In this document: piece by piece, positions 6,285 to 48,837 of the stretch
How positions within the stretch are numbered: position 1 is the first letter of the stretch
How the letters are laid out: the number at the start of each line of letters is the position of its first letter
Assembly: GCA_016708565.1 (NCBI GenBank)
Contig: JADJFN010000001.1
Location: forward strand, 348,863-412,862
Length of the DNA stretch: 64,000 bases
Reading direction: 5' to 3'
DNA from: Myxococcales bacterium
Lineage (GTDB): Bacteria > Myxococcota_A > Polyangia > Haliangiales > Haliangiaceae
Program-made: the position numbers and the translations under genes
The notes under the pieces: model-generated
What the model saw: the letters and a program-made list of their open reading frames with translations, nothing else
Databases searched by the model: none
What the model was told of the DNA's origin: nothing

Positions 6285-9703
<3,419 letters not shown>

Positions 9704-34375: not shown

Positions 34376-35293
34376 TTAGGGCCGCGGCCCCGGGATGTCC
34401 ACCCCGGTCGGATCGAGGGCGAGCGACAACGGGCACAGTCCGGCTTCGACGAGCGCGGCGGTCACCAGGTTACGCGCGAGCGCGGCCGGGCGCGCGATCA
34501 CGACCAGATCGCCGCCGCCGGCGCCGGTGGTCTTGGCGACCGCGCCCAGCGGGGCCAGCCGGAGCTGCAGCGCGCGCACCGCGGCGGGGACCAGCGCGAC
34601 GCCGGTGGTCGCCGCCAGCCGCGCGGTCGCCTCGGCGGCCGCGGCGAACCCGGCCAGCGCCGCCGGCGCGGTGGTGGCCCCCGCCAGCGCCGCCGACGCG
34701 GCGGCGATCGCGGCCAGCGCGGCGTCGACGCCCGGGCGCGCGCGGGCCGCGGTGACCGCGGCCACCAGCGTCGCGGTGTCGGCCGGCGCGCCGGTCCAGG
34801 CCACGTCGAGCGCCAGCCCGGCCGGCAGCGCGATCGGCGCCACCGCGCCGCGGGTGAACACGATCGCGCCGCCCCAGGTCGAGGCGGCGATGTCGGCGCC
34901 GCTGCCGGCGGCGCCGCGCCGGCCCTGCGCCGCCGCGTGGGCCGCGGCCGCCAGCCGTCCGACGTGCGCGCGATCGAAGGCGCCGACCGCGTGCAGCGCC
35001 GCGGCCACCGCGGCGACGGTCGCGGCCGCCGACGACCCGAGCCCCAGCTTGTGGCCGTCCTGGCGCAGCGCCTCGCTGTCGACGGTGACCCGGGCCAGCG
35101 CCGCGGCGGCCTCGGCGCCGACCTCGCGGCCGAGCTCCTCGGCGGCGGCGGCCAGGAACTCGGACAGTGCGACCGGCGCCGGGCCGACCGTCGCGCGCAC
35201 CCGGCGATCGACCGCGATCACCACCGCGGCGCCGCCGTCGAGCACCGCGTACTCGCCGGTCAGCATGATCTTGCCGGGCGCGGTGGCGATCAC
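34376..35293 (-). CDS. Phosphomevalonate kinase (GHMP kinase family).
   Basis: The N-terminus VIATAPGKIMLTGEYAVLDGG is the hallmark of phosphomevalonate kinase. The GHMP ATP motif is KLGLGSSAAATVA. The GTG start overlaps the MVD stop codon (GTGA). Confidence 0.7.
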   Translation of the reverse strand: MIATAPGKIMLTGEYAVLDGGAAVVIAVDRRVRATVGPAPVALSEFLAAAAEELGREVGAEAAAALARVTVDSEALRQDGHKLGLGSSAAATVAAVAAALHAVGAFDRAHVGRLAAAAHAAAQGRRGAAGSGADIAASTWGGAIVFTRGAVAPIALPAGLALDVAWTGAPADTATLVAAVTAARARPGVDAALAAIAAASAALAGATTAPAALAGFAAAAEATARLAATTGVALVPAAVRALQLRLAPLGAVAKTTGAGGGDLVVIARPAALARNLVTAALVEAGLCPLSLALDPTGVDIPGPRP

Positions 35294-36282
35294 GCCGGCT
35301 CCACGCCGGGGCCGGCCGCCGCCGTGGTCACCGCGGTCACGCCGGGCACCGCCGCCATCGCCGCCGCGACCGCCGCGCCGTCGGCGGCGCGGGTCAGCAC
35401 CTTGACGTGGGGGCCGGCGTCCATCGTCGCCCACGCCCCGACGCCGGCCGCGCGCAGCTCGCGCACCGCGGCCAACGCCGCCAGCGTCGCCGGCTGCCAG
35501 TACAGCACGGTCGGCCGCGACGCGATCGCCGCCGCGTGCATCGCCAGCGCGCTGCCCTCGGTCACCGCGCCCAGCGCCTCGAGATCGCCGGCGGCGATCG
35601 CGGCTTCGGCGGCGCCCAGGTCGCCGTCGACGCACGCCACCCACGCGGCGTACAGCGGCGAGGTGGCGGCGCAGTGATCCATCGCGTCGCGCGAGCCGTG
35701 GGTCTTGGCCGCGCCGCCGCCGACCTCGGCGACGATCATCCGCAGGTCGGCGACGAACGCTGGCGCGGCGGCGATCGGCGTGGCGATCGCGTCGTCGCCG
35801 TCCGCGCGGGCGCCGGCGTGCATCCGCACCAGCCCGCCGTAGATCGAGCGCGCGGCCGAGCCGGAGCCCAGCCGGGCCAGGCGCGACAGCGCCGCGCCGT
35901 CGAGGTCGAGGCCGGCGGCGCGGGTCGCGGCCAGCGCCAGCGCGGCGAAGCCCGAGGCCGACGACGCCAGCCCCGACGCGGTCGGGAAGTGGTTGACGCT
36001 GTCGATCGCGGCCCGGGCGTCGACGCCGGCCAGCTCGCGCACCCGATCGAGCCAGGTCGTGGTGCGGGCCAGCACCTTGGCGCTGGCGGCGGCGCCGTCG
36101 AGGGTCATCGCGTCGGCGGCCAGCGCGGGATCGAAGCGCACGGTCGTGACCGTGGTCAGCGCGTCGAGCGTCAGCGACAGGCTGCCGGCCGCCGGCAGGT
36201 TGCGCACGCCGTCGCGCTTGCCCCAGTACTTGACGAGCGCGATGTTGGCGCACGCGCGCGCGGTGAACGAACGACCGATCAT
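35290..36282 (-). CDS. mvaD: Diphosphomevalonate decarboxylase.
   Basis: ANIALVKYWGKRD is near the N-terminus, along with SGLASSASGFAALA and SGSAARS. The ATG at 36280-36282 overlaps the MVK stop codon (ATGA). Confidence 0.8.
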   Translation of the reverse strand: MIGRSFTARACANIALVKYWGKRDGVRNLPAAGSLSLTLDALTTVTTVRFDPALAADAMTLDGAAASAKVLARTTTWLDRVRELAGVDARAAIDSVNHFPTASGLASSASGFAALALAATRAAGLDLDGAALSRLARLGSGSAARSIYGGLVRMHAGARADGDDAIATPIAAAPAFVADLRMIVAEVGGGAAKTHGSRDAMDHCAATSPLYAAWVACVDGDLGAAEAAIAAGDLEALGAVTEGSALAMHAAAIASRPTVLYWQPATLAALAAVRELRAAGVGAWATMDAGPHVKVLTRAADGAAVAAAMAAVPGVTAVTTAAAGPGVEPA

Positions 36283-37202
36283 GGAGCACCTCCCAGCGTC
36301 GTGACGAAGCCGTCGGCGCCGAGCGCGCGCCACGCGGCCACCACCGCGTCGGCGCGGTCGGGGGCCAGCGCGATCACCGCGCCGCCGCCGCCGCCGCCGG
36401 TGAGCTTGGCCCCGAGCGCGCCGGCGCCGCGGGCGCCCGCGACCAGCGCGTCGAGCCGCGCGGTCGAGACGCCGAGCCCGGCGAGGTGGCGGTGGCCCTC
36501 GTCGAGCGCCGCGCCCAGCGCCGGCCAGCCGGCGGCGCCCGCGGCCAGCTGCCCGACCGCGGCGTCGGCCAGCGCGCCGAGCCGCGCCAGCGTCGCGTCG
36601 GTCGCGGCGGGCGCGGCGGCCCGGGCGTCGGCCACCCGCGCCACCATCGCCGCGGTCGAGCGCGGCTGCCCCGACAGGCCGATCACCAGCGGCAGCGGCG
36701 GCGCCGCGATCGCGGTCAGCCCGGCGCCGCGCACGAACCGGCCGAGCCCGCCGGCGCTGGCCAGCGCGGCGTCGAGGCCGCTGGGGTTGCCGTGGAAGCT
36801 GCGCTCGGCGCGGTTGGCCAGCTCGGCCACCGCGCCGTCGTCGAGGGCCAGCCCGCGCGCGCCGGCCAGCGCGCGGACGATCGCCACGCACAGCGCCGCC
36901 GACGAGCCCAGCCCGGCGCCGGCCGGCACGGTCGCGGTCGCGGTCACGAGGACGCCGTCGGCCACGCCCACGCCGTCGCCGATCGCCCGCAGCGCCGCGG
37001 CCACCGGGTGATCGTCGCCGGCGGTCACCGCCACCGCGAACGCGCCGGTCACGGTCAGCGCCAGCGGGCCGGGCCGCGCCGCGGCCACCGCTTCGACCCC
37101 GCGATCGATCGCGCCGGCCACCGCGGCGTGGCCGTACACCGCCGCGTGCTCGCCGAGCACGATCACCTTGCCGTGGCCGTGGCCGCGGGCGCCGGCGATC
37201 AC
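36279..37202 (-). CDS. mvk: Mevalonate kinase.
   Basis: GHGKVIVLGEHAAVYG (the MVK N-terminal motif), PAGAGLGSSAALCVAIV (GHMP ATP-binding) and KLTGGGGGGAVIAL. The GTG start at 37200-37202 overlaps the IDI-2 stop codon (GTGA). Confidence 0.75.
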   Translation of the reverse strand: MIAGARGHGHGKVIVLGEHAAVYGHAAVAGAIDRGVEAVAAARPGPLALTVTGAFAVAVTAGDDHPVAAALRAIGDGVGVADGVLVTATATVPAGAGLGSSAALCVAIVRALAGARGLALDDGAVAELANRAERSFHGNPSGLDAALASAGGLGRFVRGAGLTAIAAPPLPLVIGLSGQPRSTAAMVARVADARAAAPAATDATLARLGALADAAVGQLAAGAAGWPALGAALDEGHRHLAGLGVSTARLDALVAGARGAGALGAKLTGGGGGGAVIALAPDRADAVVAAWRALGADGFVTTLGGAP

Positions 37203-38287
37203 GGCCGCGCCACGCCCACCGCGGGCAGGCCGAGATCCTCGAGCCACCCGCGCAGCGGCGCGCCCAGGTGCCGCGGCGCCGCGCGCAGATCGGCGACCCG
37301 GCGGCTGCCGGTCAAGAGCATCACCGCGCGCACCGACGCGATCACCCCGGCCAGGAGCTCGCCGATCGCCTCGACGCCGCCGGCGCGCTGCGCCCGCAGC
37401 ACCGGCGCCGCCAGCCCGCCCAGCGCCGCGCCCAGCGCCAGCGCGCGCGCCACGTCGAGCCCGCTGCGCAGCCCGCCCGACGCGATCGTCGTGAGCCCGT
37501 GGCTGGCGCACGCCACGGTGGCCACCGCGGTCGGCACGCCCCAGTCCCACAGCTCGGTGCCGAGCGCCCGGGCCCGCGAGCCCTCGGCCGCGCGCCGCGC
37601 CTCGACCGCGACCCAGCTGGTGCCGCCGGCGCCGGCCACGTCGACGGTGGTCACGCCGACGAACTTCAGCCGCGCCGCCGCCTGCGCCGACAGCCCGCAG
37701 CCGGTCTCCTTGACGATCACCGGCACCGGCAGCGCGTCGACCAGCCGGGCGATCGTGTCGACCGCGCCGCGGAAGTCGCGATCGCCGTCGGCCTGGATCA
37801 GCTCCTGGCCGGGGTTCAGGTGGATCGCCAGCGCGTCGGCCTCGATCTGCTTGATCAGCTCGATCACCCGCGCGGTGCCGAGCGCCTTCGCTTGCACCAC
37901 GCCGAGGTTGCCGATCAGCACGACCCCCGGCGCGACGTCCTTGACCCGGAACGTCGCCAGGAGCTCGGGGTGCTCGGCCATCGCCCGCTGCGAGCCGACG
38001 CCCATCGCGAGGCCGGCGGCGGCCGCGGCGGTCGCGACCTCGCGGTTGATGCGCGCCGCGGTCGCGGTGCCGCCGGTCATGCCGGTCACCATCACCGGCG
38101 CGGCCAGCCGGTGGCCACACAGCTCGACGTCGAGCTCGAGCTCGTCGGCGGCCAGCTCGGGCAGCGCCTGGTGCACCAGGTGGACGTGCTCGAGCAGCGT
38201 CGTGCGCTCGGCGAAGTCGGCCTCGCCCGAGGCCGCGACCTCGAGGTGATCGGCCTTGCGCCGCGCGATCGCAGGTTCGTCGACCAT
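37199..38287 (-). CDS. fni: Type 2 isopentenyl-diphosphate delta-isomerase (FMN-dependent IDI-2).
   Basis: MVTGMTGGT, LAMGVGSQRAM, IHLNPGQELIQ, PVIVKETGCGLS and GGTSW are motifs characteristic of IDI-2. Confidence 0.8.
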   Translation of the reverse strand: MVDEPAIARRKADHLEVAASGEADFAERTTLLEHVHLVHQALPELAADELELDVELCGHRLAAPVMVTGMTGGTATAARINREVATAAAAAGLAMGVGSQRAMAEHPELLATFRVKDVAPGVVLIGNLGVVQAKALGTARVIELIKQIEADALAIHLNPGQELIQADGDRDFRGAVDTIARLVDALPVPVIVKETGCGLSAQAAARLKFVGVTTVDVAGAGGTSWVAVEARRAAEGSRARALGTELWDWGVPTAVATVACASHGLTTIASGGLRSGLDVARALALGAALGGLAAPVLRAQRAGGVEAIGELLAGVIASVRAVMLLTGSRRVADLRAAPRHLGAPLRGWLEDLGLPAVGVARP

Positions 38288-38340
38288 CGCCGGTTTCTAG
38301 CACGCTGCCGCCCCGCCGGCGGCCGGGCGCCGGCCGCGCG

Positions 38341-39222
38341 TCAATACACCATCAACAGCACCAGCGCGCCGAACGCCAGGCCGTTGAGCAAGAACAGCGG
38401 GTCGCGCAGCATCGCGTCGGTGGGGCTGTCCTCGCCGGCCTTGCGCAGCGCCAGGTCGGCGAAGCGCAGGATGCCGACGGCGCCGAGCGGCGCGGTCCAC
38501 ACCAGGTTGCGGGTGCCGAAGAAGCGGATGGTGTGCGCGTCGAGCGTGTACGCGACGTACGCGCCGATCGTCGCCAGCGCCAGCACGATCATCGACCACT
38601 GCACCGCCGTCGGGTGGTAGCCGGCCAGCGCCGCGCGGGTGGTGCCGACGTCGCGGCCGGCCAGCTTGGCGCGGGCCAGCTCGTGGGCGCGCTTGCCCAG
38701 CCCCAGGAACATCGCCAGCAGCCCGGTGCACGCCAGCAGCCACGGCGACGGCGCGACGCCGATGGCCGCGCCGCCGGCCATGACCCGCAGGATGAACCCG
38801 GCGGCGATCAAGATGACGTCGACGAACGCCACCTGCTTGAGCTTGAAGCTGTAGGCCAGGTTCTGCGCGAGGTACACGCCGGCCCACACCCCCGCCATCG
38901 GCGCCAGCGCGAACGCGGTGCCGAGGCCGGCCAGCGCCAGCACCGCCGCGACCACCAGCGCCGCGCGCTCGCCGAGGTGCCCCGCGGCGATCGGCCGCTT
39001 GCACTTGGTCGGGTGCGCGCGATCGGCGGCCACGTCGAGCACGTCGTTGAACGCGTAGACCGCGCCGGCCAGGGCGCAGAACGCCGCCACCGCCAGCGCG
39101 GCGCGCAGCGCGTAGTGCCCGTCCGCGAGGTGCTTGGCGAACACCAGCGGCGCGGCCACGAACACGTTCTTCACCCACTGGTGTGGGCGGAGCGTCTTGA
39201 GGACTGCGCGGGCCGGGCTCAT
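38341..39222 (-). CDS. UbiA-family prenyltransferase (decaprenyl-phosphate phosphoribosyltransferase-like).
   Basis: LKTLRPHQWVKNVFVAAPLVFA...FNDVLDVAADRAHPTKCKRPIAAG. It is polytopic and membrane-like. The start is taken as the ATG at 39220-39222. The ORF start at 39279 is the alternative. Confidence 0.7.
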   Translation of the reverse strand: MSPARAVLKTLRPHQWVKNVFVAAPLVFAKHLADGHYALRAALAVAAFCALAGAVYAFNDVLDVAADRAHPTKCKRPIAAGHLGERAALVVAAVLALAGLGTAFALAPMAGVWAGVYLAQNLAYSFKLKQVAFVDVILIAAGFILRVMAGGAAIGVAPSPWLLACTGLLAMFLGLGKRAHELARAKLAGRDVGTTRAALAGYHPTAVQWSMIVLALATIGAYVAYTLDAHTIRFFGTRNLVWTAPLGAVGILRFADLALRKAGEDSPTDAMLRDPLFLLNGLAFGALVLLMVY

Positions 39223-39291
39223 CGGCGAGCGCGCGGTGTTAGCACGGGGCTCGACGCGATGCCGAGTTCCCGGCGCCAACCGTGCGGTGGG

Positions 39292-41169
39292 CTACGGCGC
39301 GACCGCGGCAGAACCCGTGCCCGTCCCCGAACCCGAACCCGTCGCCGTGCCCGTCCCCGATCCCGTCCCCGATCCCGATCCCGTCCCCGATCCCGTCCCC
39401 GATCCCGATCCCGTCCCCGATCCCGATCCCGTCCCCGATCCCGTCCCCGATCCCGCGCCCACGCCGGCGTCGCCATCGTCGGCGGCCGGCGCGGCGTCCT
39501 CGGTGTCGGTGTCCTCGGTGTCGGTGTCCTCGGTGTCGGTGTCCTCGGTGTCCTCGTCCTCGTCGTCCTCGAAGTCGCCGCCGTCGTCGGCGCCGCCGTT
39601 GGCCTCGACCCAATCGGCGATCTTCGCCGTCTCGCAGGCCTTGGCCTCATCCGGCGCCTTCTTGCGGCAGTTGGTGACGTCGGTGAACAGGCCCAGGCAG
39701 TTCTCGCGCTCGAACTCGTCCTCGATGCCCTTGCACTCGTCCTGCTTCTTGACCGTGCCGTCGGGCAGGGTGACCTCGTCGACGTTGATCACCGCCTGGG
39801 CGCTGGACTTCACCACCGCCACCAGGCCGTCGAGGGTCCCGGTGGGCTTGGGCGGCGGCACCACGGTCAGGCTCGGCACGTAGGTCACGATCAACAGCGC
39901 CGCCATCACGGTGAACATGAATGGCAAGGTCGCGACCGTGACCTCCAGCAACGGTTTTCGAAACTTGAAGCTGGAGATGAACAGGTTGAGGCCGATCGGT
40001 GGGTGCAGGTAGCCGATCTCGAGGTTGAGCAAGAAGATCACGCCGAGGTGGTACGGGCTGACGTCGTACTCGTGGGCCACGGGCGCGATCAGCGGCACGA
40101 CGATCAAGATCGCCGAGAAGATGTCCATGACCATGCCGGTCAGGAGCAAGAGCCCGTTGAGCGCCAGCAGGAACGCCCACCGCGAGTCGATGTGGTCGCG
40201 GGTCCAGTGCACCAGCTTGGCGGGGACGCCCGCGGTCACCAGGTAGTTGGTCAGCGCGGTCGCCGAGTAGATGATGATGAAGATCGCGCCGATCAGCGCC
40301 ATCGACTCCTTGGTGATGGCCCACAGCGCCTGGGGCTTGAGGTCGCGGAAGATGCCCATCTCGACGATGATCAGGTACAGCACCGTCAGCGACGCGATCT
40401 GCGAGATGTCGCCGACGCCCTTGGCCAGGCCCAGCAAGATCAAGATCGGCAGGAAGATCACCGGCAGCGCGCCGGGCAGCGAGGCGAACAGCTCGCCCCA
40501 CTCGAACTTCTGGCGCGGCACCTTCTTGATGATCGCGATCGCCACCACCAGCGCCGACAGCATCAGGATCAGCAGCGCGCCCGGGATGATGCCGGCGAAG
40601 TAGAAGCGCTCGGTGGCCCACTCCCATTGCCAGTTCTCGGGCTTGGGCTGGATGCGCTGCAGGCCATAGATCGTGCCGAACAGGATGATCGGCAGGGCCG
40701 GCGGGAACAGCAGGCCGACCGAGCCGGTGCCGGTCACCAGGCCGAGCGCGAACCGCTCGGGGTACCGCTGCTTGATCAGCGCCGGCATCAACAGGCCGCC
40801 GAGCGCGACGATCGTGACGCCCGAGGCGCCGGTGAACGTGGTGTACACCGAGCACGCCAGGATCGTGACGATGCCGAGCCCGCCCGGCACCCAGCCCAGC
40901 GCGGCGTTGGCGAAGCGCACCAGCCGCTCGGCGGTCTTCGACGCGGCCATCACGTAGCCGGCGTAGATGAACAGCGGGATGCTCGAGAAGATCGTCGACT
41001 TGTCGCCGGTGCCGAGGCTGAAGAACTCGTAGGCGAAGCCGCCGAAGTCCTTCTCGAAGCCCTTGGTGCCGGTCTCGGCGCCGATCGCGGTCAAGAACAA
41101 CATCACCGCGAACAGCGGCGAGCCGGCGACGAACGCCAGCACCAGCAGGATGATCAGGAGCGTCAGCAT
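39292..41169 (-). CDS. dctM: TRAP transporter large permease (DctM family) with an unusual ~190-aa C-terminal tail. The tail is acidic, contains four Cys residues and ends in a (GSGT)n low-complexity stretch.
   Basis: A ~435-aa polytopic DctM-like core (LLMPALIKQRYPERFALGLVTGTGSVGLLFPPALPIILFG...). It is followed by ...DECKGIEDEFERENCLGLFTDVTNCRKKAPDEAKACETAKI...DDEDEDTEDTDTEDTDTEDTDTED...GSGTGSGTGSGSGTGSG. The whole region is one continuous frame. Confidence 0.8.
   Translation of the reverse strand: MLTLLIILLVLAFVAGSPLFAVMLFLTAIGAETGTKGFEKDFGGFAYEFFSLGTGDKSTIFSSIPLFIYAGYVMAASKTAERLVRFANAALGWVPGGLGIVTILACSVYTTFTGASGVTIVALGGLLMPALIKQRYPERFALGLVTGTGSVGLLFPPALPIILFGTIYGLQRIQPKPENWQWEWATERFYFAGIIPGALLILMLSALVVAIAIIKKVPRQKFEWGELFASLPGALPVIFLPILILLGLAKGVGDISQIASLTVLYLIIVEMGIFRDLKPQALWAITKESMALIGAIFIIIYSATALTNYLVTAGVPAKLVHWTRDHIDSRWAFLLALNGLLLLTGMVMDIFSAILIVVPLIAPVAHEYDVSPYHLGVIFLLNLEIGYLHPPIGLNLFISSFKFRKPLLEVTVATLPFMFTVMAALLIVTYVPSLTVVPPPKPTGTLDGLVAVVKSSAQAVINVDEVTLPDGTVKKQDECKGIEDEFERENCLGLFTDVTNCRKKAPDEAKACETAKIADWVEANGGADDGGDFEDDEDEDTEDTDTEDTDTEDTDTEDAAPAADDGDAGVGAGSGTGSGTGSGSGTGSGSGTGSGTGSGSGTGSGTGTATGSGSGTGTGSAAVAP
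39300..39560. repeat. Coding microsatellites inside the DctM tail: (cccgatcccgtc)n hexamer/dodecamer repeats and (ctcggtgtcggtgtc)x3.5.
   Basis: Read directly on the plus strand at 39303-39470 and 39478-39535. Confidence 0.6.
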
Positions 41170-41170
41170 G

Positions 41171-41863
41171 TCAGCCCGCCACTTCCGGCTCGGGCGCGGT
41201 CTTGCCCTGGCGCAGGTAGTCGATCTCGATGACGATGTGCAGGGTGACGTGGAACATGATCAGCACGGCGCACACCGGGATCAGCCAGCCCACGGTCGTG
41301 GTCGGGATGACCTCGTAGTGCTGCTTCTCCTTGGTCAAGGCGTGCTGGATGAGCCGACCGCCGTGGAACAAGAGCGCGCCGGCCAGCAGCGCGGCGACGT
41401 TGGTGAACACCCGCACCAGCGCCTTCACCTTGGTGGGGAACAGCGCCGAGACCAGGTCGAGGCCAAAGTTGCGCCGGCTCTGGGTGGCGTAGGCGGCGCC
41501 GAGCATGCCGATCGAGAACGCCGACAGGCGCACGATCTCGATCGCCCACAGCGGCCGTTCGCTGGCGAACATGTCGATGAACGTGCGGTACAAGCTGACC
41601 AGGACCAGCACGGCGAACGCGCCGAACAGCCCGGCGCGCTCGCCCGCGCCGACCGCCTCGTCGATCCGGCGCACCGCGCGCGCCAGCGGTGGCTCATCGG
41701 CGAAGTGATCGACCACGTGGGGCTCCGGGAACGCGACGGCCACGGCTACGCCCATCCCCGTCGCGGCAGGTGGTTCGGTCTTGAGGTGGACCTCGCCATC
41801 GGCCTTGGGGTCGGGCAGGTCGGGCGATGGCTTGACGGGTGGGTCATCACCGGATGCGCTCAC
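41171..41863 (-). CDS. dctQ: TRAP transporter small permease (DctQ family) with an N-terminal extension.
   Basis: It has four predicted TM helices and DctQ-like segments (FGAFAVLVLVSLYRTFIDMF...WAIEIVRLSAFSIGMLGAAYA). The gene ends 2 nt before the dctM start. Confidence 0.65.
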   Translation of the reverse strand: MSASGDDPPVKPSPDLPDPKADGEVHLKTEPPAATGMGVAVAVAFPEPHVVDHFADEPPLARAVRRIDEAVGAGERAGLFGAFAVLVLVSLYRTFIDMFASERPLWAIEIVRLSAFSIGMLGAAYATQSRRNFGLDLVSALFPTKVKALVRVFTNVAALLAGALLFHGGRLIQHALTKEKQHYEVIPTTTVGWLIPVCAVLIMFHVTLHIVIEIDYLRQGKTAPEPEVAG

Positions 41864-41994
41864 ACCAGCATCTTACGCAGGATCCGGAACCTGCCTCAAC
41901 CGATGCCGCCACCAAGTGCTCGTCCCGTCGGCCGCGTCGCGGCAGCCACCACGGTCGACTCGAGTGGAGGCGGCGTCTCGGCTACCCTCGCGCC

Positions 41995-42171
41995 ATGCCG
42001 ATCTGCCGCGAGTGCAAGGACGAAGTCGATCGCCTGGTCTCGGTCAAGGTCGCCGGCAAGGCCGTCAAGCTGTGCGCCGACTGCGCCGACCGCGCCCGCG
42101 AGGGCGCCGAGATCGCCGAGGCGAGCGAATCGGTGATCCAGGGCATGATGGGCTTCAAGGGCCGCCGCTAG
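41995..42171 (+). CDS. Small zinc-ribbon protein (58 aa, two CxxC pairs). It is on the strand opposite to the TRAP genes and lies between dctP and dctQ.
   Basis: MPICRECKDEVDRLVSVKVAGKAVKLCADCADRAREG... has high GC3. It is followed by a strong hairpin at 42203-42231. Confidence 0.4.
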   Translation: MPICRECKDEVDRLVSVKVAGKAVKLCADCADRAREGAEIAEASESVIQGMMGFKGRR

Positions 42172-42202
42172 CCACCAAGCGCGCGAGCACCGCCGCGCTA
42201 CC

Positions 42203-42231
42203 TCCGAAACGCAACCGCCCCGCACGAGGCG
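42203..42231 (+). terminator. Hairpin AACCGCCCCGC-acgag-GCGGGGCGGTT followed by GTT. It is part of a convergent terminator region that also includes hairpins at about 42277-42294 and 42312-42331.
   Basis: Perfect 11-bp stem, read directly. It lies between convergent gene ends. Confidence 0.4.
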
Positions 42232-42336
42232 GGGCGGTTGTTCCCTCAGACGGCCCCGCGCTGAACGCTCCGGGCCGTTTCGGGTGGGGGCCCCGGCGCA
42301 TGCCGGGGGAGGGTCTTACGAAAGACCCTCTCTAGG

Positions 42337-43359
42337 TCACGGCGCGGGGTTCTTCGCGCGGTACTCGTCGCGGTACTTCAGCACCATCTCGAGCTCGGCC
42401 TTCGAGTAGACCTTGCCGGTCAGATCGGCCCAGACGTCCTTGGCCGCCTTGTCGAAGTCGGCCAGGAGCTCCGGCGTGGTCGCGCTGATCTTCACGCCCT
42501 TGCGCTCCATCTGCTTCTTGGCGCTCTCGTTGTCCTTGCGGATCTGCTTGCGGAGCGTCTTCTGCATGCCCTTGGAGATCTTGAGCACCAGCTTCTGGTC
42601 CTCGGCCGTCACCTTCTTGTAGGCGTCCAGCTTGATGACCGTGGCGGCGATGCCGTAGCTCATCGGCATCGAGGTCATGTACTTGACCTTGGTGTTCCAC
42701 TGCAGCGCCACGGCGGCCAAGGGCGAGCCGTAGCACGCGTCGATGCGGCCGGTGGTCAGGTTGGGCTCGACCTCGGGCACGCCCAGCGGCACGCCCGAGA
42801 TGCCGAGCCGCTTGTACATGGCGCGGACGATCGCGTCGTCGCCCCACATCCACACCTTCGAGCTCTTGAGGTTGCCGACGCTGGTGATCTCGGACTTCGA
42901 GAGCAGGTAGATCCAGCCGACGTCGCCGCGATCGCCGAGCTTGTAGCCCTTGGCCTCGAACTTCTTGACGAAGTACGGCCACATCTTGTCGGCGACGTAG
43001 TCGAGCTCCTCGACCGTCGCGAACATGCGCGGCAGCTCGAGCACGCGGATCGACTCTTCGACCATCGACAGGCCGACCGAGGTCACGGCGGCGCCGTCGA
43101 GCTGGCCGAGGTTGATCTTGCGGACGACGTCGCGCTCGTCGCCCTGGACGCCGCCGGCGTAGTACTTGACCTTGACCCGGCCCTCGGTCTTCTTGTCGAT
43201 CTCGGCGGCGCCCTTGCCGAGGATCTTCATCCACGAGCTGCCGTCGGGCGCCAGGGTGGCCAGGCGGATCTCGACGTTGTCGGCCGCCGCCGGGGCGATC
43301 GCCGCGAGGGAAGCCGCGACGGCGGTCGCGAGGGTGAGACGGTTGACAAGGCTGCGCAT
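42337..43359 (-). CDS. dctP: TRAP transporter substrate-binding protein (DctP family).
   Basis: The signal peptide is MRSLVNRLTLATAVAASLAAIAPAAA. The body is a DctP-like periplasmic binding-protein sequence. A GGAG lies 8 nt upstream of the ATG. The ATG overlaps the stop codon of the tatT-like gene (TGATG). Confidence 0.8.
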   Translation of the reverse strand: MRSLVNRLTLATAVAASLAAIAPAAADNVEIRLATLAPDGSSWMKILGKGAAEIDKKTEGRVKVKYYAGGVQGDERDVVRKINLGQLDGAAVTSVGLSMVEESIRVLELPRMFATVEELDYVADKMWPYFVKKFEAKGYKLGDRGDVGWIYLLSKSEITSVGNLKSSKVWMWGDDAIVRAMYKRLGISGVPLGVPEVEPNLTTGRIDACYGSPLAAVALQWNTKVKYMTSMPMSYGIAATVIKLDAYKKVTAEDQKLVLKISKGMQKTLRKQIRKDNESAKKQMERKGVKISATTPELLADFDKAAKDVWADLTGKVYSKAELEMVLKYRDEYRAKNPAP

Positions 43360-44291
43360 CAGAAGAGCTCCTTTTCCTGGCTGAGGTACCGGCGGGCGCG
43401 CCGGTGGGCGATCTCGTTGGCGAGGCGCTGCTCCGGCCAGATCGCCGGATCGGTCTGCAGCACCTTGACCAGTTCGTCGTGGAACAGCGTGCGGTTCTGG
43501 GTCATGACGCCGACCCGCTTGGCGTAATTCACGCGGGCGAGCAGGAACTTGTCGTCGGTCAGCGCGAGGGCCTTCTTGAAGTGCTCCTCGGCCTTGGCCG
43601 CGTCGCCGCCCAGCTGGGCGCCGGCCGCGGTGTAGAGCAGGCCCAGCGCGACGTGGGGCAGGGCCGCCAGCGCCTTGTCCTTGGGCGGGTGCTTGTCGTC
43701 CATCTCGACGACCTTGAGCAGCATCGCCTTCGCGGTCGGCGCCTGCGCCACCAGCTCGACGTTGTCCTTGTTGTGGTTGATCATCGAGCCGAGGCCGATC
43801 GCCGCCCACATCAACGGGGTGCGCTGGCCGCTCGACGCGCCGTTGATCAGCTTGGTCACCGACTCGGTGTCGCCGAACAGGCCGTCCTGCCACTTCTTAC
43901 CGAGCTGCATCAGCGCGTAGTTCATGCAGCGCACGAACATCCGGGTCGCGCGGTTGTCGAGCTCCTGCGCCGCGTCGTAGTCGTTGGCGATCAGCGCGCG
44001 CTCCCACTCGTCCTCGACGAAGCCGATGCCGTACTGGCAGTAGCCCTCGGCGAGGATGCCGCGCAGGATCGGGTTGCCGGGATCGACCACCCAGAAGCCC
44101 TCGACGGTCTTGAGCGTGCCGGGGATGGCGCGCGCCGCCAGCTCGTAGTCGGACTCCATCTTGATCGACGGCTGGGCGCGGATCAGCACCTTCGCCGTGG
44201 TGTTGACGGTGAACTGGCCCATGTCGCACGCGGCGAGCACGAGCGTCGCCACGGCGGCGACGGCGAGAGCGAGGCGAGAGGTTCGGATCAT
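43359..44291 (-). CDS. TatT-like TPR lipoprotein (TRAP-associated T component family).
   Basis: A LAAC lipobox. A helical TPR-like protein of about 310 aa immediately upstream of dctP, matching the TPR-protein-associated TRAP transporter arrangement. Confidence 0.7.
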   Translation of the reverse strand: MIRTSRLALAVAAVATLVLAACDMGQFTVNTTAKVLIRAQPSIKMESDYELAARAIPGTLKTVEGFWVVDPGNPILRGILAEGYCQYGIGFVEDEWERALIANDYDAAQELDNRATRMFVRCMNYALMQLGKKWQDGLFGDTESVTKLINGASSGQRTPLMWAAIGLGSMINHNKDNVELVAQAPTAKAMLLKVVEMDDKHPPKDKALAALPHVALGLLYTAAGAQLGGDAAKAEEHFKKALALTDDKFLLARVNYAKRVGVMTQNRTLFHDELVKVLQTDPAIWPEQRLANEIAHRRARRYLSQEKELF

Positions 44292-44443
44292 GCGCGAGGT
44301 CCTGTGAGAGACGAGGGTTCGGCGTAGGGCATTCACGGCGGTGGCGGGATGAACCCGTCCGCTACCCCGGACGCGAAGGCTAAGTGAGCGAAAGGCGAGA
44401 GTCAATCACGGCGACGCGGTGGGCGACCGGGTACACTGGGCCG

Positions 44444-46054
44444 GTGACGCGCGCCTGGCTGGTCCTCGCCTGCGCCCTGGCCCTGGCGGCGGTCGGCTGC
44501 GACGCGTCGTGGCTGGGCGCCGCGCCGTCCGACCGCGGGCCGGGCGGGCTCAAGGCGGGCACGATCGTCGTGGCCCGCCCCGCCGACGCCAGCTCGCTCG
44601 ACCCGGCGCGCCCCAGCGACAACGAGTCGTCGGAGGTGATCTCGCAGCTCTACGACACGCTGGTGCGCTACCGCCCGGGCACCACCGAGATCGAGCCGGG
44701 CCTGGCGGTGGCGTGGGAGGTCGATCCCGCCGGGCGCTCGTGGACGTTCCGGCTGCGGCCGGGCGTGCGGTTCCACGACGGCACCGCGCTCGACGCGGCG
44801 GCCGTGGTGTTCAGCTTCGAGCGCCAGCGCGATCCCCAGCACCCGTACCACCGCGGCAAGTTCGCGTACTGGGAGAACGCGTTCAAGAACATCGAGCGGG
44901 TCGAGGCGATCGCGCCGATGATCGTGCGGATCACGATCAGCGATCGCTTCGCCCCGTTCCTGGCGGCGATGGCGACGTTCCCGGTGTCGATCGTGTCGCC
45001 GGCCGCGGTGGCCCGGTCCGGCGACGACTTCGGCGATCACCCGGTCGGGACCGGCGCGTACCGGCTGGAGCGCTGGACCCGCGGCGAGCGGATCGTCATC
45101 GTGCGCAACCCCGACTACTGGGGGCCGCGGCCGGCGATCGAGCGGGTGGTGTTCGAGGTCGTCCCCGACGCCCGGCAGCGGCTCATCGCGCTCGAGAGCG
45201 GCGCGGTCGATCTGGCGCTGGCGATCCTGCCCGCCGAGTCGCAGTTCCTCGATCTGCACCCGGGCCTGACGCTGCACCGGCCGCCGGCCAACAACGTCAC
45301 CTACCTGGCGATGAACTGCGCGCAGCCCCCGTTCGATCAGCCGGCGGTGCGGCAGGCGCTGGCCCTGGCGATCAACAAGCAGGCGATCGTCCGGCTGGCG
45401 TACCAGGGCCTGGCCACCGTCGCCGACGGCCCCCTGCCGCCGTCGCAGTGGGGGTACCGACCGGGGCTGGGCGCGGTGGGCTTCGATCCGGATGCGGCGC
45501 GGGCCCGGCTCGAGCGGCTGGCCGCCGAGGGCGCGATCGACCTGGGCCACACCTACAAGCTGTACGCGCCGACGACGCCGCGGCCGTACCTGCCCAACCC
45601 CGAGCAGGTCGCGCGGATCATCCGCGCCAACCTCGAGGAGGTCGGCCTGCACGTCGAGCTGGTGCTGCAGCCGTTCGCGGCGACGCGGCAAGACACCCAG
45701 GCCGGGCGCCACGACCTGGCGCTGGCCGGCTGGGTCGGCGACAACGGCGACCCCGACAACTACCTGTACCTGATGTTCGACAAGGACAACACGGTGCCCG
45801 GCATCGCCCGCAACATCGCGTTCTACCGCGACGACGCGGTGTCGACGCTGCTGCGCCGGGCCCAGCGGGTCGAGGACCGCGGCGAGCGCGAGCGGCTGTA
45901 CGCCGAGGCCCAGACCCGGATCGCGGCCGACGCGCCGTGGGTGCCGCTGGCCCACTCGCAGGTGACCGTGGCCGCGCGCGAGGACATCACCGGCGTGGTG
46001 GTCGATCCCACCGGCCACGTCGTGTACGCCGGGCTCAAGCGGGTCAAGCGGTGA
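44444..46054 (+). CDS. Solute-binding lipoprotein, family 5 (peptide/nickel/opine-type SBP, DppA/OppA-like).
   Basis: An AAVGC lipobox and a long family-5 SBP-like body (TIVVARPADASSLDPA...LVRY...). The start is taken as the GTG at 44444. Confidence 0.75.
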   Translation: MTRAWLVLACALALAAVGCDASWLGAAPSDRGPGGLKAGTIVVARPADASSLDPARPSDNESSEVISQLYDTLVRYRPGTTEIEPGLAVAWEVDPAGRSWTFRLRPGVRFHDGTALDAAAVVFSFERQRDPQHPYHRGKFAYWENAFKNIERVEAIAPMIVRITISDRFAPFLAAMATFPVSIVSPAAVARSGDDFGDHPVGTGAYRLERWTRGERIVIVRNPDYWGPRPAIERVVFEVVPDARQRLIALESGAVDLALAILPAESQFLDLHPGLTLHRPPANNVTYLAMNCAQPPFDQPAVRQALALAINKQAIVRLAYQGLATVADGPLPPSQWGYRPGLGAVGFDPDAARARLERLAAEGAIDLGHTYKLYAPTTPRPYLPNPEQVARIIRANLEEVGLHVELVLQPFAATRQDTQAGRHDLALAGWVGDNGDPDNYLYLMFDKDNTVPGIARNIAFYRDDAVSTLLRRAQRVEDRGERERLYAEAQTRIAADAPWVPLAHSQVTVAAREDITGVVVDPTGHVVYAGLKRVKR

Positions 46055-48837
46055 GCCGGCCGGGGCGGTGGCTGCGCGGGCTCGGCGCCGGCCTGGCCTG
46101 GCCGGCGCGGCGCATCGCGCGGGCGCGCCTGCGCACCAAGCTGGCGCTGGCGCTGACCGTCGCGGCGCTGCTGCCGATGCTGGTGGTGGCGTCCTTGGCC
46201 TCGGGCGTCGTGCTCGGCAGCCTCGATCGCGGCCTGCAGTCCGACGTGCAGCGCCAGCTCGACGTCGGGCTCAACCTGACCCTGCGCGCGGTCGAGCGGC
46301 TGGGCGAGGACGCCGTGCGGCTGGCCGCCAACCCCGAGCTGGCCGACTCGGTGCCGCGCGGCGCCGCCGCGATCCACGAGGTGGTGGCGCAGCGGGCGGC
46401 GTACCTGCCGTCGGCGCTGGTCCAGGTGCTGTCGCGCGACGGCCTGCCGCTCACCAGCGAGGTCATCGGCGGCGACGAGGCCCGGTTCTCGGAGCTGGCG
46501 GTCGACGGCAGCTCGGCGACGGTGGCGTCGGCGCGCGACTGGGCCCGGCGGGTGCAGCTCGAGCTGTCGCCCAAGGGCGTCGTGGTGCGGGCCTCGGCGC
46601 CGGTGCTCGACCGCCAGCTGTCGCTGGTCGGCGTGGTCGTGATCTCGGTGCCGCTCGACGGCGCGTTCGCCGACGGCATCAAGGGCGCGCTCGGCGTCGA
46701 CGTGCTGATCGGCAGCCTCAACGCCGGCGTGGCCACCTCGACGGTGCGCGACGCCGACGGCCGGCGGCTGTCGGCGCTGCAGGTGCCGACCCGGGTGCTG
46801 GCCCAGGTGCGCGAGCGCCGCCACCCGGTCGTGACCCAGGCCATCGCCGGCCGCGAGCACGCGGTGGCGTGGACCGCGCTCGAGGACGATCGCGGGCGCG
46901 CGGTCGGGCTGTTCGCGGTGGCGATCGATCGGCGGTCGCTGTCGCAGGCGCAGCGGGTGGCGTTCCGCTCGCTGGCCATCGGCGCGGCGGTGGCGGTGGC
47001 GTTCGCGTTCGTGCTGGCGGCGGCGCTGACCCGGCGCGTGGGCCGGCCGATCGCGACCCTGCACCGCGGCGCGATCGCGATCGCGCGCGGCGAGCTCGAT
47101 CAGGTGATCGACGTGCCGGCCGGCGACGAGATCGGCGACCTGGCCAAGGCCTTCACCCACATGACCGCGGCGCTCAAGGAGAACCAGCAGCGCCTGGCGG
47201 CGCGCATGCGCGAGATGGTGGCGATCCAGGACGCCGGCCGGGCGATGTCGTCGGTGATCGAGTTCGACCAGGTGTCGGCCAAGATCGTCGACGCGGTGGC
47301 CCGGGTGTTCGACGTGCGGCTGTGCGCGCTGTTCGCGGTGGCCGGCGGCGGCCGCGACGAGCCGCGGGTGACGGTGGCGGCGGCCCGGGTGCGCAAGGCC
47401 GAGCTGGCCAGCGCGCTGATCGGGGTCGACCCCGCCGACGCCGCGCCGCTGGCGCCGATCGCCGCGCAGGTGGCCCGGCTGCGCGCGACGTTGCGCGTCG
47501 ACGACGTGATCGCCGATCCCCGGCGCAAGGACGCGGCGCTGGCGGCCGGCGTCGACGGCTCGCTGCTGGCCATGCCGCTCGAGCGCAAGGGCGCGGTGGT
47601 GGGCGTGCTGGTGCTCGGCCGCACCCAGCGCAGCCGGACCTTCCTCGAGGCCGACGCCAACCTGCTGGCGACCTTCGCCGACCAGGCGGCGGCGGCGGTC
47701 GAGAACGCCCGGCTGTACGCGCAGGTCCGCGACGCCAGCGAGGAGCTCGAGGCCAAGGTGCGGCTGCGCACCGCCGAGCTGACGGCGATCAACGCCGAGC
47801 TGGGCCGCGCGCTGTCCGAGCTGCGCGACACCCAGGCCCAGCTGGTGCTGTCGGAGCGGATGGCCGGCCTCGGCCTCCTGGTGGCCGGCGTGGCCCACGA
47901 GATCAACTCGCCGTCGGCGGCGATCCGCGGCGCGGTCGAAGGGATGACCGCGGCGATCGGCCGGCTGGCGGTGCCCATGCACGAGCTGGCGGCGGCGGTG
48001 CCGACCGCGGCGGCCTTGTTCGCCACCGTCGAAGCGCACGCGCGCCGGCTGGCCGGCGAGCGCATGCCGACCGGCGCGGCGGTGCGGCGGGCCGCCAAGG
48101 AGCTGCGGGCCCGGCTGGTCGAGCTGGGCGCCGGGGCGGCGCCCGAGCTGGGCACCCGCCTGGCCGAGGCCGGGGCCGAGCTGGCCACCGTCGACGCGCT
48201 GGTGGCGGCGGTCCCGCCCGGCGCGGCCGGCGCGGTCCTGACCTACCTGGTCGAGCTGGCCGAGGTCCACCGGGCGTCGCTGCTGATCGCCAACGCGATC
48301 GTGCGCATCCAGCGCATCGTAGGTGCGCTCAAGACCTACTCGCACCTCGACCAGGAGCCGACCCGGGTCGCCGCCGACGTCCACGAGGGGATCGAGACCA
48401 CGCTCACCCTCATGGGGTACGCGCTGCGTGATATAACGGTGGTGAGGCGGTTCGCCGAGTTGCCCGCGGTGCCGATCTTTGTCGATGAGCTCAATCAGGT
48501 TTGGACGAACCTGATCCAGAACGCTGTCCAGGCGTGCGCGGGGAGAGGCACGATCACGATCGAGACCGTGGCCGCGGCGGCCACCGCCGCTGACCCCGCT
48601 GGGGTGGTGGTGCGGATCGTCGATGACGGGCCCGGCGTGCCGCCCGAGATCCTGCCGCGGATCTTCGAGCCGTTCTTCACCACCAAGCCCAAGGGCGAGG
48701 GCACCGGGCTGGGGCTGGGCATCGTCGCGCAGATCGTCGTCAAGCACGGCGGTCGGGTGGCGTGCGACTCGGTGCCCGGGCGCACCGCGTTCGAGGTGTG
48801 GCTGCCGACCGTGCGCCGCGGAGGCGCGACCGCGTGA
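46051..48837 (+). CDS. Sensor histidine kinase with a periplasmic sensor, HAMP and GAF domains and a HisKA-like (HisKA_3/7-type) plus HATPase core.
   Basis: There are two TM segments flanking a ~270-aa periplasmic region. The HAMP domain is IGDLAKAFTHMTAALKEN. A GAF-like region follows. The H-box is LVAGVAHEINSPSAAIRG. The ATP-lid has NLIQNAVQA and GTGLGLGIV. The GTG start overlaps the SBP stop codon (GTGA). Confidence 0.8.
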   Translation: MSRPGRWLRGLGAGLAWPARRIARARLRTKLALALTVAALLPMLVVASLASGVVLGSLDRGLQSDVQRQLDVGLNLTLRAVERLGEDAVRLAANPELADSVPRGAAAIHEVVAQRAAYLPSALVQVLSRDGLPLTSEVIGGDEARFSELAVDGSSATVASARDWARRVQLELSPKGVVVRASAPVLDRQLSLVGVVVISVPLDGAFADGIKGALGVDVLIGSLNAGVATSTVRDADGRRLSALQVPTRVLAQVRERRHPVVTQAIAGREHAVAWTALEDDRGRAVGLFAVAIDRRSLSQAQRVAFRSLAIGAAVAVAFAFVLAAALTRRVGRPIATLHRGAIAIARGELDQVIDVPAGDEIGDLAKAFTHMTAALKENQQRLAARMREMVAIQDAGRAMSSVIEFDQVSAKIVDAVARVFDVRLCALFAVAGGGRDEPRVTVAAARVRKAELASALIGVDPADAAPLAPIAAQVARLRATLRVDDVIADPRRKDAALAAGVDGSLLAMPLERKGAVVGVLVLGRTQRSRTFLEADANLLATFADQAAAAVENARLYAQVRDASEELEAKVRLRTAELTAINAELGRALSELRDTQAQLVLSERMAGLGLLVAGVAHEINSPSAAIRGAVEGMTAAIGRLAVPMHELAAAVPTAAALFATVEAHARRLAGERMPTGAAVRRAAKELRARLVELGAGAAPELGTRLAEAGAELATVDALVAAVPPGAAGAVLTYLVELAEVHRASLLIANAIVRIQRIVGALKTYSHLDQEPTRVAADVHEGIETTLTLMGYALRDITVVRRFAELPAVPIFVDELNQVWTNLIQNAVQACAGRGTITIETVAAAATAADPAGVVVRIVDDGPGVPPEILPRIFEPFFTTKPKGEGTGLGLGIVAQIVVKHGGRVACDSVPGRTAFEVWLPTVRRGGATA

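Follow-up and report, generated by a model that had tools for sequence, protein, structure and literature searches.

A four-cysteine, most likely periplasmic appendage on the large permease subunit of a TatT-associated TRAP transporter in Kofleriaceae-like Myxococcota

Why does the large membrane subunit belonging to a TRAP (tripartite ATP-independent periplasmic) transporter continue for almost two hundred residues beyond its last transmembrane (TM) helix? The question is raised by a dctM gene in a 64,000-nucleotide (nt) stretch of DNA from a Myxococcales bacterium (GenBank assembly GCA_016708565.1, contig JADJFN010000001.1, positions 348,863 to 412,862 of the forward strand), referred to below as the window; all coordinates are window positions. 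Current structural research on TRAP transporters revolves around the way in which the soluble binding protein (P subunit) finds and couples to the elevator formed by the small (Q) and large (M) membrane subunits, and all M subunits that have been solved or characterised stop at the last helix. A clade whose M subunits carry a folded extracytoplasmic domain (one to three copies) and a polyanionic stalk would be a natural experiment on partner recruitment, of interest for research on both TRAP transporters and the myxobacterial envelope. The tail would also offer a new small disulfide domain with a confidently predicted fold, as well as a handle on the poorly understood, lipid-linked TatT-associated class of TRAP transporters. 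The microsatellite that encodes part of the tail is its least significant feature.

The gene was found as one open reading frame (ORF) at 39292..41169 on the minus strand (625 aa plus stop, ATG start, no internal stop; stop codon 39292-39294). Residues (aa) 3-433 of the product matched the Pfam DctM profile (PF06808) with an expect value (E) of 2e-65 and 221.5 bits against a cutoff of 23.8, covering profile positions 2-412 of 413, and aa 63-438 matched TIGR00786 with 302.1 bits against a cutoff of 268.45. Judged by the full-length DctM match above the curated cutoff, the product is a TRAP large permease. The canonical core (aa 1-433; 39871..41169, minus strand) has ten TM helices and two hairpins by homology, and was modelled confidently by AlphaFold2. 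Since the core alignment ends only 5-8 residues short of where all solved TRAP M subunits terminate (9pym, 7qe5, 8thi, and 7qha_B), aa 434-625 are extra relative to these subunits. This tail is 192 aa long and is encoded at 39295-39870. It opens with a Pro-rich hinge (VVPPPKP) and an amphipathic helix (aa 434-461; 39787..39870, minus strand), a segment conserved in the family consensus, and continues through a four-Cys module into an acidic and repeat-coded end. In the full-length AlphaFold2 model (59-sequence alignment), a low-confidence hinge at aa 436-445 followed the confident core, and was itself followed by a helix at aa 446-461 with predicted local distance difference test (pLDDT) values of 72-89 (10-residue block means), the module at 85-94, and aa 529-625 at 32-43.

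The first-pass annotation, a reading of the letters and ORF translations alone, had taken the tail to be a continuation of dctM in the same frame, and no sign of a missed stop or frame error between the two was found. The window is 75% GC, and the GC content at third codon positions (GC3) of the dctM ORF was about 1.0 through aa 550. Inside the (GSGT)n tract, GC3 was 0.77 in the ORF frame and 0.95 in another frame (GIGD...), and some relatives were frameshifted or split (P0034; P0195 with P0199); both observations speak for an annotation or assembly artefact in which a frameshift or missed stop has fused dctM to unrelated sequence. Against it stand the only two true orthologues recovered in the scan of genome contigs, which both hold the ORF frame: L002, from a Myxococcales metagenome-assembled genome (MAG; JAEUJY010000028), the record closest to the window dctM (98% core identity, 624 aa), and L001, from a Kofleriaceae MAG (80% identity, 648 aa). 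Their tails are rich in G, S, A, and T in the same frame as that of the window, and their GC3 of 0.91-0.94 is highest in the ORF frame. L002 and the window have the C-terminal end in common (...VAP, stop), and the stop and the downstream DNA are identical in the alignment. The splits in relatives fall in the core or the module and none at the junction, and a single ORF with this architecture is present in more than 100 relatives, drawn from independent assemblies. The GC3 of the other frame is higher only inside (GSGT)n, and the artefact, which we rejected, is exceedingly improbable. Together with the frame retention in L001 and L002 and the DNA alignment of the window with L002, the codon and GC3 pattern of the tract fits recent origin by slippage better than an error of frame. 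Taking the anatomical statements jointly, we regard the tail as very probably a genuine, translated, and lineage-conserved appendage of the M subunit.

The tail was then found to be widespread among relatives. Among the matches listed in the protein search, 120 relatives were identified, and after exclusion of the fragments P0024, P0025, and P0034 they were long DctM proteins of 525-724 aa. All those with a source name were labelled as Kofleriaceae, Myxococcales, or Deltaproteobacteria MAGs. A local hidden Markov model (HMM) was built from the Cys segment of the tail and run on the 121 family members; the four-Cys module was found in every one of them, always past the last TM helix, in one (53 proteins), two (54), or three copies (14). 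Tails are present across the family members and vary in length. The earlier description of the tail as unusual holds against characterised TRAP transporters and fails within the family: by these profile matches, with more than 100 long DctM proteins bearing it, the tail is the rule in a Kofleriaceae-like Myxococcota clade and not the oddity of one genome.

In the window protein, the module occupies aa 462-525 (39595..39786, minus strand), with its cysteines at C479, C491, C501, and C512 (codons 39733-39735, 39697-39699, 39667-39669, and 39634-39636). In an alignment of 44 diverse modules, all four Cys were invariant, one Gly and one Phe were nearly so, and the spacing was C-x11-C-x9-C-x10-C in most modules. 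AlphaFold2 run on this alignment gave a 63-aa module with pLDDT 92.9 and a predicted template modelling score of 0.80, comprising a beta-hairpin followed by three helices. The first-pass annotation had called the tail disordered, which is upheld for aa 529-625, predicted from their low pLDDT to be intrinsically disordered, and fails for the Cys segment, modelled as a folded domain. No match to the module was found in Pfam or NCBIfam, no relative was found among PDB sequences, and a Foldseek fold search against the PDB returned nothing at E<=1e-3. The module resembles the twin-CX9C (CHCH) proteins in being a small helical domain with two Cys on one helix (C491-x9-C501) and the partner Cys on neighbouring helices. 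It differs from them in having a single CX9C helix, an added beta-hairpin, the C-x11-C-x9-C-x10-C spacing, and no fold match; moreover, twin-CX9C proteins belong to the mitochondrial intermembrane space, whereas the module of the window is bacterial and predicted to be periplasmic. When the module profile was searched against 1.84 billion cluster representatives, only 72 matches were obtained, most of them DctM C-termini; P0173 and P0192 were rejected as module carriers, their matches being repeat-driven false positives. The output of a second, word-indexed search with the profile was limited to 13 short fragments, none of them from a named cultured organism, and the identifiable tail carriers are uncultured MAGs. 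A literature search on C-terminal extensions of DctM found nothing relevant. With no description in domain libraries, solved structures, or a full-text literature search, the module appears to be a previously undescribed domain family.

The module is not confined to permeases. It was also found at the C-terminus of the lipoprotein-like proteins P0128, P0135, P0148, P0176, and P0185, whose N-terminal parts are unrelated: those of P0128, P0148, P0176, and P0185 are Cys-containing regions without any Pfam match, and that of P0135 is a tRNA_anti-like oligonucleotide-binding (OB) fold. P0176 also bears a GGFE-acidic tail. The contig that carries P0135 was too short for its genomic context to be judged. 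A further protein, P0191 (253 aa), is secreted, His-rich, and has a signal peptide; its four tandem repeats are weak matches to the module profile (E 5.8e-4). The first repeat, read by eye, has the C-x11-C-x9-C-x10-C spacing, and P0191 may be a distant, metal-associated branch of the domain.

The compartment of the tail was deduced from solved TRAP transporters. The window core is homologous to the M subunits of HiSiaQM (7qe5/8thi), PpSiaQM (7qha), and the isethionate DctMQ (9pym), which implies an elevator-type fold, and their topology can be transferred because the alignment reaches so close to their C-termini; all of these subunits lack both a disordered tail and any periplasmic domain at the C-terminus. 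In HiSiaQM, helices Q1-Q4 lead into a connector helix, which begins at the cytoplasmic face, and this into the M domain, which comprises TM2-11 (ten crossings) and two non-crossing hairpins (PMC9352664; PMC10942642). The N-terminus of TRAP M subunits is periplasmic (PMC5812351) and, as the number of crossings is even, so is the C-terminus. In the window protein, the positively charged FKFRKP precedes the last TM helix, which fits the positive-inside rule. In addition, a homologue, P0167, has a tail that finishes with a MYXO-CTERM sorting domain, which scored 19.1 bits with TIGR03382, above the cutoff of 15.85. Solved topology, the occurrence of the module on lipoproteins, and the MYXO-CTERM domain of P0167 together make it most likely that the tail is periplasmic. 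P0167 itself is a 654-aa fragment with three module-profile matches and G/S/A linkers, followed by GGCSKGG...LLLYLLMRRRQT. A sortase-type C-terminal signal on an inner-membrane permease is odd, and P0167 was the sole case among the 217 proteins collected; the signal is absent from the window tail, which ends in ...GSAAVAP and has no hydrophobic stretch.

The first-pass annotation had suggested that the four-Cys tail could bind a metal. Four invariant Cys would suit a cytoplasmic Cys4 metal-binding tail, yet the C-terminus is periplasmic by solved topology, and neither the module on lipoproteins nor the MYXO-CTERM of P0167 agrees with a cytoplasmic location. Furthermore, C491 and C501 lie 10 residues apart on one helix predicted by AlphaFold2 to be continuous, which makes a single Cys4 site geometrically implausible, and no CxxC or CxxH knuckles were found in the modules. 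The metal proposal was set aside, and a cytoplasmic Cys4 tail is very improbable. In an oxidising compartment, two disulfides are the simplest reading of four invariant cysteines; the four Cys probably form two structural disulfides rather than a metal site, and the most plausible pairing would be C479-C491 and C501-C512. At one locus (L007), a DsbA/thioredoxin-like gene (8686-9567, minus strand) stands directly after the dctQ-dctM-ubiA triad; this single case fits a disulfide-containing periplasmic product.

Past the module, the tail was resolved into an acidic disordered segment (aa 526-565; 39475..39594, minus strand), in which a GGDFEDD motif is followed by (EDTDT)n and the net charge is -23 over 40 aa, and a G/S/T/A-rich disordered end (aa 566-625; 39295..39474, minus strand), which contains (GSGT)n encoded by a 6/12/18/30-nt microsatellite (39314-39455). 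The Cys-containing peptide quoted in the first-pass annotation, the four Cys, both repeat tracts, and the acidity were all as described there, with a net charge of -30 for the whole tail. Its 15-nt and 6/12-nt-type repeats were recovered by Tandem Repeats Finder: a 15-nt unit in 4.1-5.1 copies coding (EDTDT)n (39492-39571, score up to 121) and a 12/18/30-nt array coding (GSGT)n (39314-39455, scores 137-146). Scores of tandem repeats in the tail were 107-146 overall, far above chance. The periods (6, 9, 12, 15, 18, and 30 nt) are all multiples of three, so slippage alters only the length of the tail and makes no on/off switch.

The repeat-coded end bears signs of recent change. Glycine in the (GSGT)n tract is encoded by GGA (10 times) and GGG (8 times), whereas in the core GGC occurs 41 times and GGA is absent. 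When the DNA of the window was aligned with that of L002, the flanks were nearly identical and an internal stretch of about 140 nt differed, the near-perfect microsatellite being present only in the window; total length was nearly equal (625 and 624 aa) despite the replacement of the tract. The in-frame changes of repeat length foreseen by the first-pass annotation were seen in the cluster (>=90% identity) of P0001, the nearest relative in the protein collection (86% identical), whose members are 624, 620, and 614 aa long. A single 12-nt SGTG unit separates the 624-aa form from the 620-aa form; the changes in the 614-aa form lie in its (GT/GS)n and EDTDT tracts. All of these variants are in frame, and the variation was seen among related proteins. 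Contingency loci likewise have coding-region microsatellites with repeat-number differences among close relatives; a phase-variable contingency locus was rejected here, the units all being multiples of three and the variants in frame. By codon usage and alignment, the (GSGT)n tract is of recent origin, shows no constraint on its sequence, and is drifting in length in frame.

Composition of the region past the module was compared across the family. One-module relatives (n=53) have a median of 63 residues past the module with a median of 21 Asp/Glu, whereas the medians past the last module are 6 and 3 residues in two- and three-module relatives. Since long acidic tails occur in one-module proteins and almost none in the others, modules and acidic string look interchangeable. 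A G.FE-acidic motif, represented by GGDFEDD in the window protein, was found in 26 of the 53 one-module relatives. All extensions evaluated (118/118) are net negative, from -5 to -57, and the median charge of the module is -4. As judged from these alignments, the composition and charge of the tail are conserved and its sequence is not.

Four one-module relatives (P0007, P0008, P0010, and P0025; 68-75% identical) contain three or four GGFE-acidic motifs in the tail. Three of these tails end in ...GEDEEVDAAP(K), and in P0007 the sequence is ...GEDEDVDAAPK. In Hsp70 and Hsp90, EEVD serves as the classic ligand for tetratricopeptide repeat (TPR) clamps. The TatT lipoprotein of the transporter described below is TPR-like. 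Since EEVD does not form the extreme C-terminus of these tails and the window protein lacks it, it is noted here as a lead only.

The long dctM stands last in an operon of the order tatT-dctP-dctQ-dctM, with all genes on one strand and their ends overlapping or adjacent. The product of tatT (43359..44294, minus strand) is a TPR-like lipoprotein that matched PF16811 (TAtT) over the full profile (E 1e-56) as well as Tp0956 (E 7e-9) and Es_TatT 8g52 (E 7e-5) in the PDB. It has a signal peptide with the putative lipobox LVLAAC|D, and equivalent lipoboxes were read from the sequences of L001, L002, L005, and L006. The dctP gene (42337..43359, minus strand) encodes a tatP-type solute-binding subunit of 340 aa (Pfam DctP; NF037995, 268 bits; PDB Tp0957, E 1.6e-14) with a plain signal peptide without a lipobox, and the mature protein has a net charge of +11 and an isoelectric point (pI) of 9.35. 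The small membrane subunit is encoded by dctQ (41171..41863, minus strand; Pfam DctQ at aa 88-211, E 2e-15). Because a TAtT-family gene (PF16811) adjoins dctP, the transporter is assigned by gene content to the TatT-associated TRAP (TPAT) systems, with the four components TatT, DctP, DctQ, and DctM. The next gene, 12 nt past the dctM stop, encodes a UbiA-family prenyltransferase (38341..39279, minus strand; Pfam UbiA) that resembles decaprenyl-phosphate phosphoribosyltransferase (NF008977, 230.4 bits, below the cutoff of 234). Among nine family loci, tatT and dctP were found upstream of dctQM in seven, and the UbiA-family gene was next after the long dctM in eight.

TatT is a fourth component in about 2% of TRAP systems, forms complexes with the P subunit, and has hydrophobic ligands such as long-chain fatty acids in Treponema pallidum and Enhygromyxa salina (PMC11713862; PMC5812351). 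The TPAT system of T. pallidum (Tp0956, Tp0957, and TatQM) is, like that of the window, a four-component system with a TAtT lipoprotein encoded upstream of a DctP-type protein. In T. pallidum loci (L009 and L010), Q and M are fused (632 and 609 aa) and the protein ends right past the last TM helix, lacking both the module and an acidic tail; in the window, Q and M are separate and M has the 192-aa extension. As the spirochaete QM ends without the module, the tail is clade-specific and not a general TPAT feature. The two systems also differ in the P subunit, which is a lipoprotein (TatP) in T. pallidum and has a plain signal peptide in the window.

From this anatomy, we propose that the tail may be a tethered docking arm. 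The chain would leave the last TM helix on the periplasmic side, pass through the hinge and amphipathic helix (aa 434-461) into the compact 63-aa disulfide module, and end in about 100 aa of disordered polyanion. A module on such a flexible, negatively charged stalk could hold soluble periplasmic partners at the permease, namely the basic, non-lipidated P subunit and, via P, the TatT lipoprotein as well. The (GSGT)n tract would be a mere unconstrained spacer whose length drifts by in-frame repeat slippage. Support is circumstantial: the likely periplasmic location, a folded module of a contact type, the interchangeability of modules and acidic string, the universal acidity, and a basic, unanchored P subunit. 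P subunits of the family were basic at all seven loci that have them (7/7; net +7 to +17, pI 9.2-9.6), and none has a lipid anchor. The T. pallidum system, with a lipidated TatP and a tailless QM, adds to this circumstantial support. This function for the tail is possible but doubtful; as a functional guess, the suggestion of the first-pass annotation that the tail binds a partner protein or serves as a spacer is still the best one. The account as a whole, with anatomy, disulfides, and docking arm taken together, is the best explanation available, and is somewhat more apt to fail in some part than to hold throughout.

Several findings weigh against a docking arm. TatP of T. pallidum is likewise basic (net +7, pI 9.1), although its QM is tailless. 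Net charges of P subunits were -3 to +4 in PDB controls and -16 at one canonical locus, and a basic P is weak evidence. The tightest neighbour of the long dctM is the UbiA-family gene, closer than tatT or dctP, and at two of the nine loci DctQ-DctM-UbiA stands with no P or T gene nearby. The periplasmic placement rests on homology and the positive-inside rule, and the disulfide pairing and any partner interface are putative. Lastly, the gene of P0148 adjoins hemerythrin and MCP-signal genes and has no TRAP genes nearby, and the presence of the module on lipoproteins away from TRAP genes argues for a generic role in the envelope.

That last observation leads to an alternative in which the four-Cys domain is a generic module for envelope interaction or oligomerisation, tying the permease and the lipoproteins to one another or to an envelope component that they share, with nothing specific to P or T. 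It is favoured by the domain ending lipoprotein-like proteins with unrelated N-terminal domains, by the position of P0148 away from TRAP genes, and by the MYXO-CTERM anchor that ends the DctM homologue P0167. However, most profile matches are DctM C-termini, no candidate common partner is known, and direct binding to peptidoglycan or lipopolysaccharide, both acidic, is unlikely for an acidic domain; we consider this alternative unlikely, with a chance worth keeping in mind. The parts beyond the module might instead have grown neutrally, the module perhaps stabilising or folding the permease, and the acidic and (GSGT)n parts being functionless slippage products tolerated in a 75% GC genome. The (GSGT)n sequence differs even in L002 with its 98% core identity, uses rare Gly codons, and varies in length within a cluster, and the post-module sequence differs widely among relatives, all of which such growth would explain. 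It sits poorly with the acidity of 118 of 118 extensions, the restriction of long acid strings to one-module proteins, the recurrence of the G.FE-acidic motif in 26 of 53 of these, and the length kept between the window and L002 (625 and 624 aa) though the tract was wholly replaced. Largely neutral growth is quite unlikely.

Two further alternatives concern ions and lipids. A polyanionic tail (net -30) could act as an antenna that gathers Na+ or divalent cations where a Na+-coupled elevator opens to the periplasm; the characterised TRAP transporters are Na+-dependent (PMC10942642; PMC10774421) and the negative charge is conserved family-wide. We regard such an antenna as improbable, since it leaves the folded disulfide domain and its occurrence on lipoproteins unexplained and no cation-binding motif was found in the tail. 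Saposins and other small helical domains rich in disulfides bind lipids, and the module, pinned by its putative disulfides, might bind the hydrophobic cargo of the TPAT system or the polyprenyl product of the UbiA-family enzyme and pass it to or from the permease. The tight synteny with UbiA-family and mevalonate-pathway genes agrees with such a hand-off, as does the binding of long-chain fatty acids by TatT proteins (PMC11713862); it has a small outside chance of being correct.

If the tail does act as a docking arm, the M subunit might even be self-recruiting: tethered, disulfide-pinned modules would capture TatP and, through it, TatT, the balance of one to three modules against the length of the acidic string would tune reach and avidity, and the arrangement would replace the lipid anchor of the spirochaete P subunit. 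This extension is speculative and unlikely to hold in full. In the ATP-binding cassette (ABC) importers GlnPQ and OpuA, substrate-binding domains are reportedly fused or tethered to the membrane subunit. The likeness lies in an extracytoplasmic appendage that raises local concentration for substrate delivery, and is offered as an analogy only, with no membership claimed; the fused domain of those importers is the binding protein itself, whereas the module of the window does not have a substrate-binding protein fold and P is encoded by a gene of its own. A self-recruiting permease, if true, would give TRAP systems an equivalent of the ABC importers whose binding domains are fused.

The remaining observations concern neighbouring genes and their surroundings. 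In the region 34376-39279 (minus strand) of the window and in L005, L006, L011, L012, and L013, the UbiA-family gene is often followed by genes for a type-2 isopentenyl diphosphate (IPP) isomerase (IDI-2, FMN_dh) and mevalonate kinase, and often further mevalonate-pathway genes, i.e. diphosphomevalonate decarboxylase (MVD), PMK or a third GHMP kinase, and HMG-CoA reductase. The linkage of the TRAP/TPAT importer to this isoprenoid gene cluster persists down to about 52% identity, and the gene order hints at a role in isoprenoid or lipid physiology. Should translation begin at the first start codon, DctQ has a Pro/Asp-rich N-terminal extension of about 85 aa, predicted to be cytoplasmic; among relatives, DctQ is called at lengths of 189-263 aa.

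Divergent from tatT, genes for an SBP_bac_5 binding protein (44384-46054, plus strand) and a large HAMP-GAF histidine kinase (about 46068-48837, plus strand) were found. The pair stands upstream in five loci, with the same position in L005, L006, L011, and L013, and may be a dedicated sensor for the transporter operon. In the region 36000-43000, on both strands, many ORFs 300-900 aa long run across the real genes, reading other frames and the opposite strand (e.g. 38533..41232, plus strand, 899 aa); judged by their Arg/Gly/Pro-rich translations, they are the usual artefact of 75% GC DNA and not genes.

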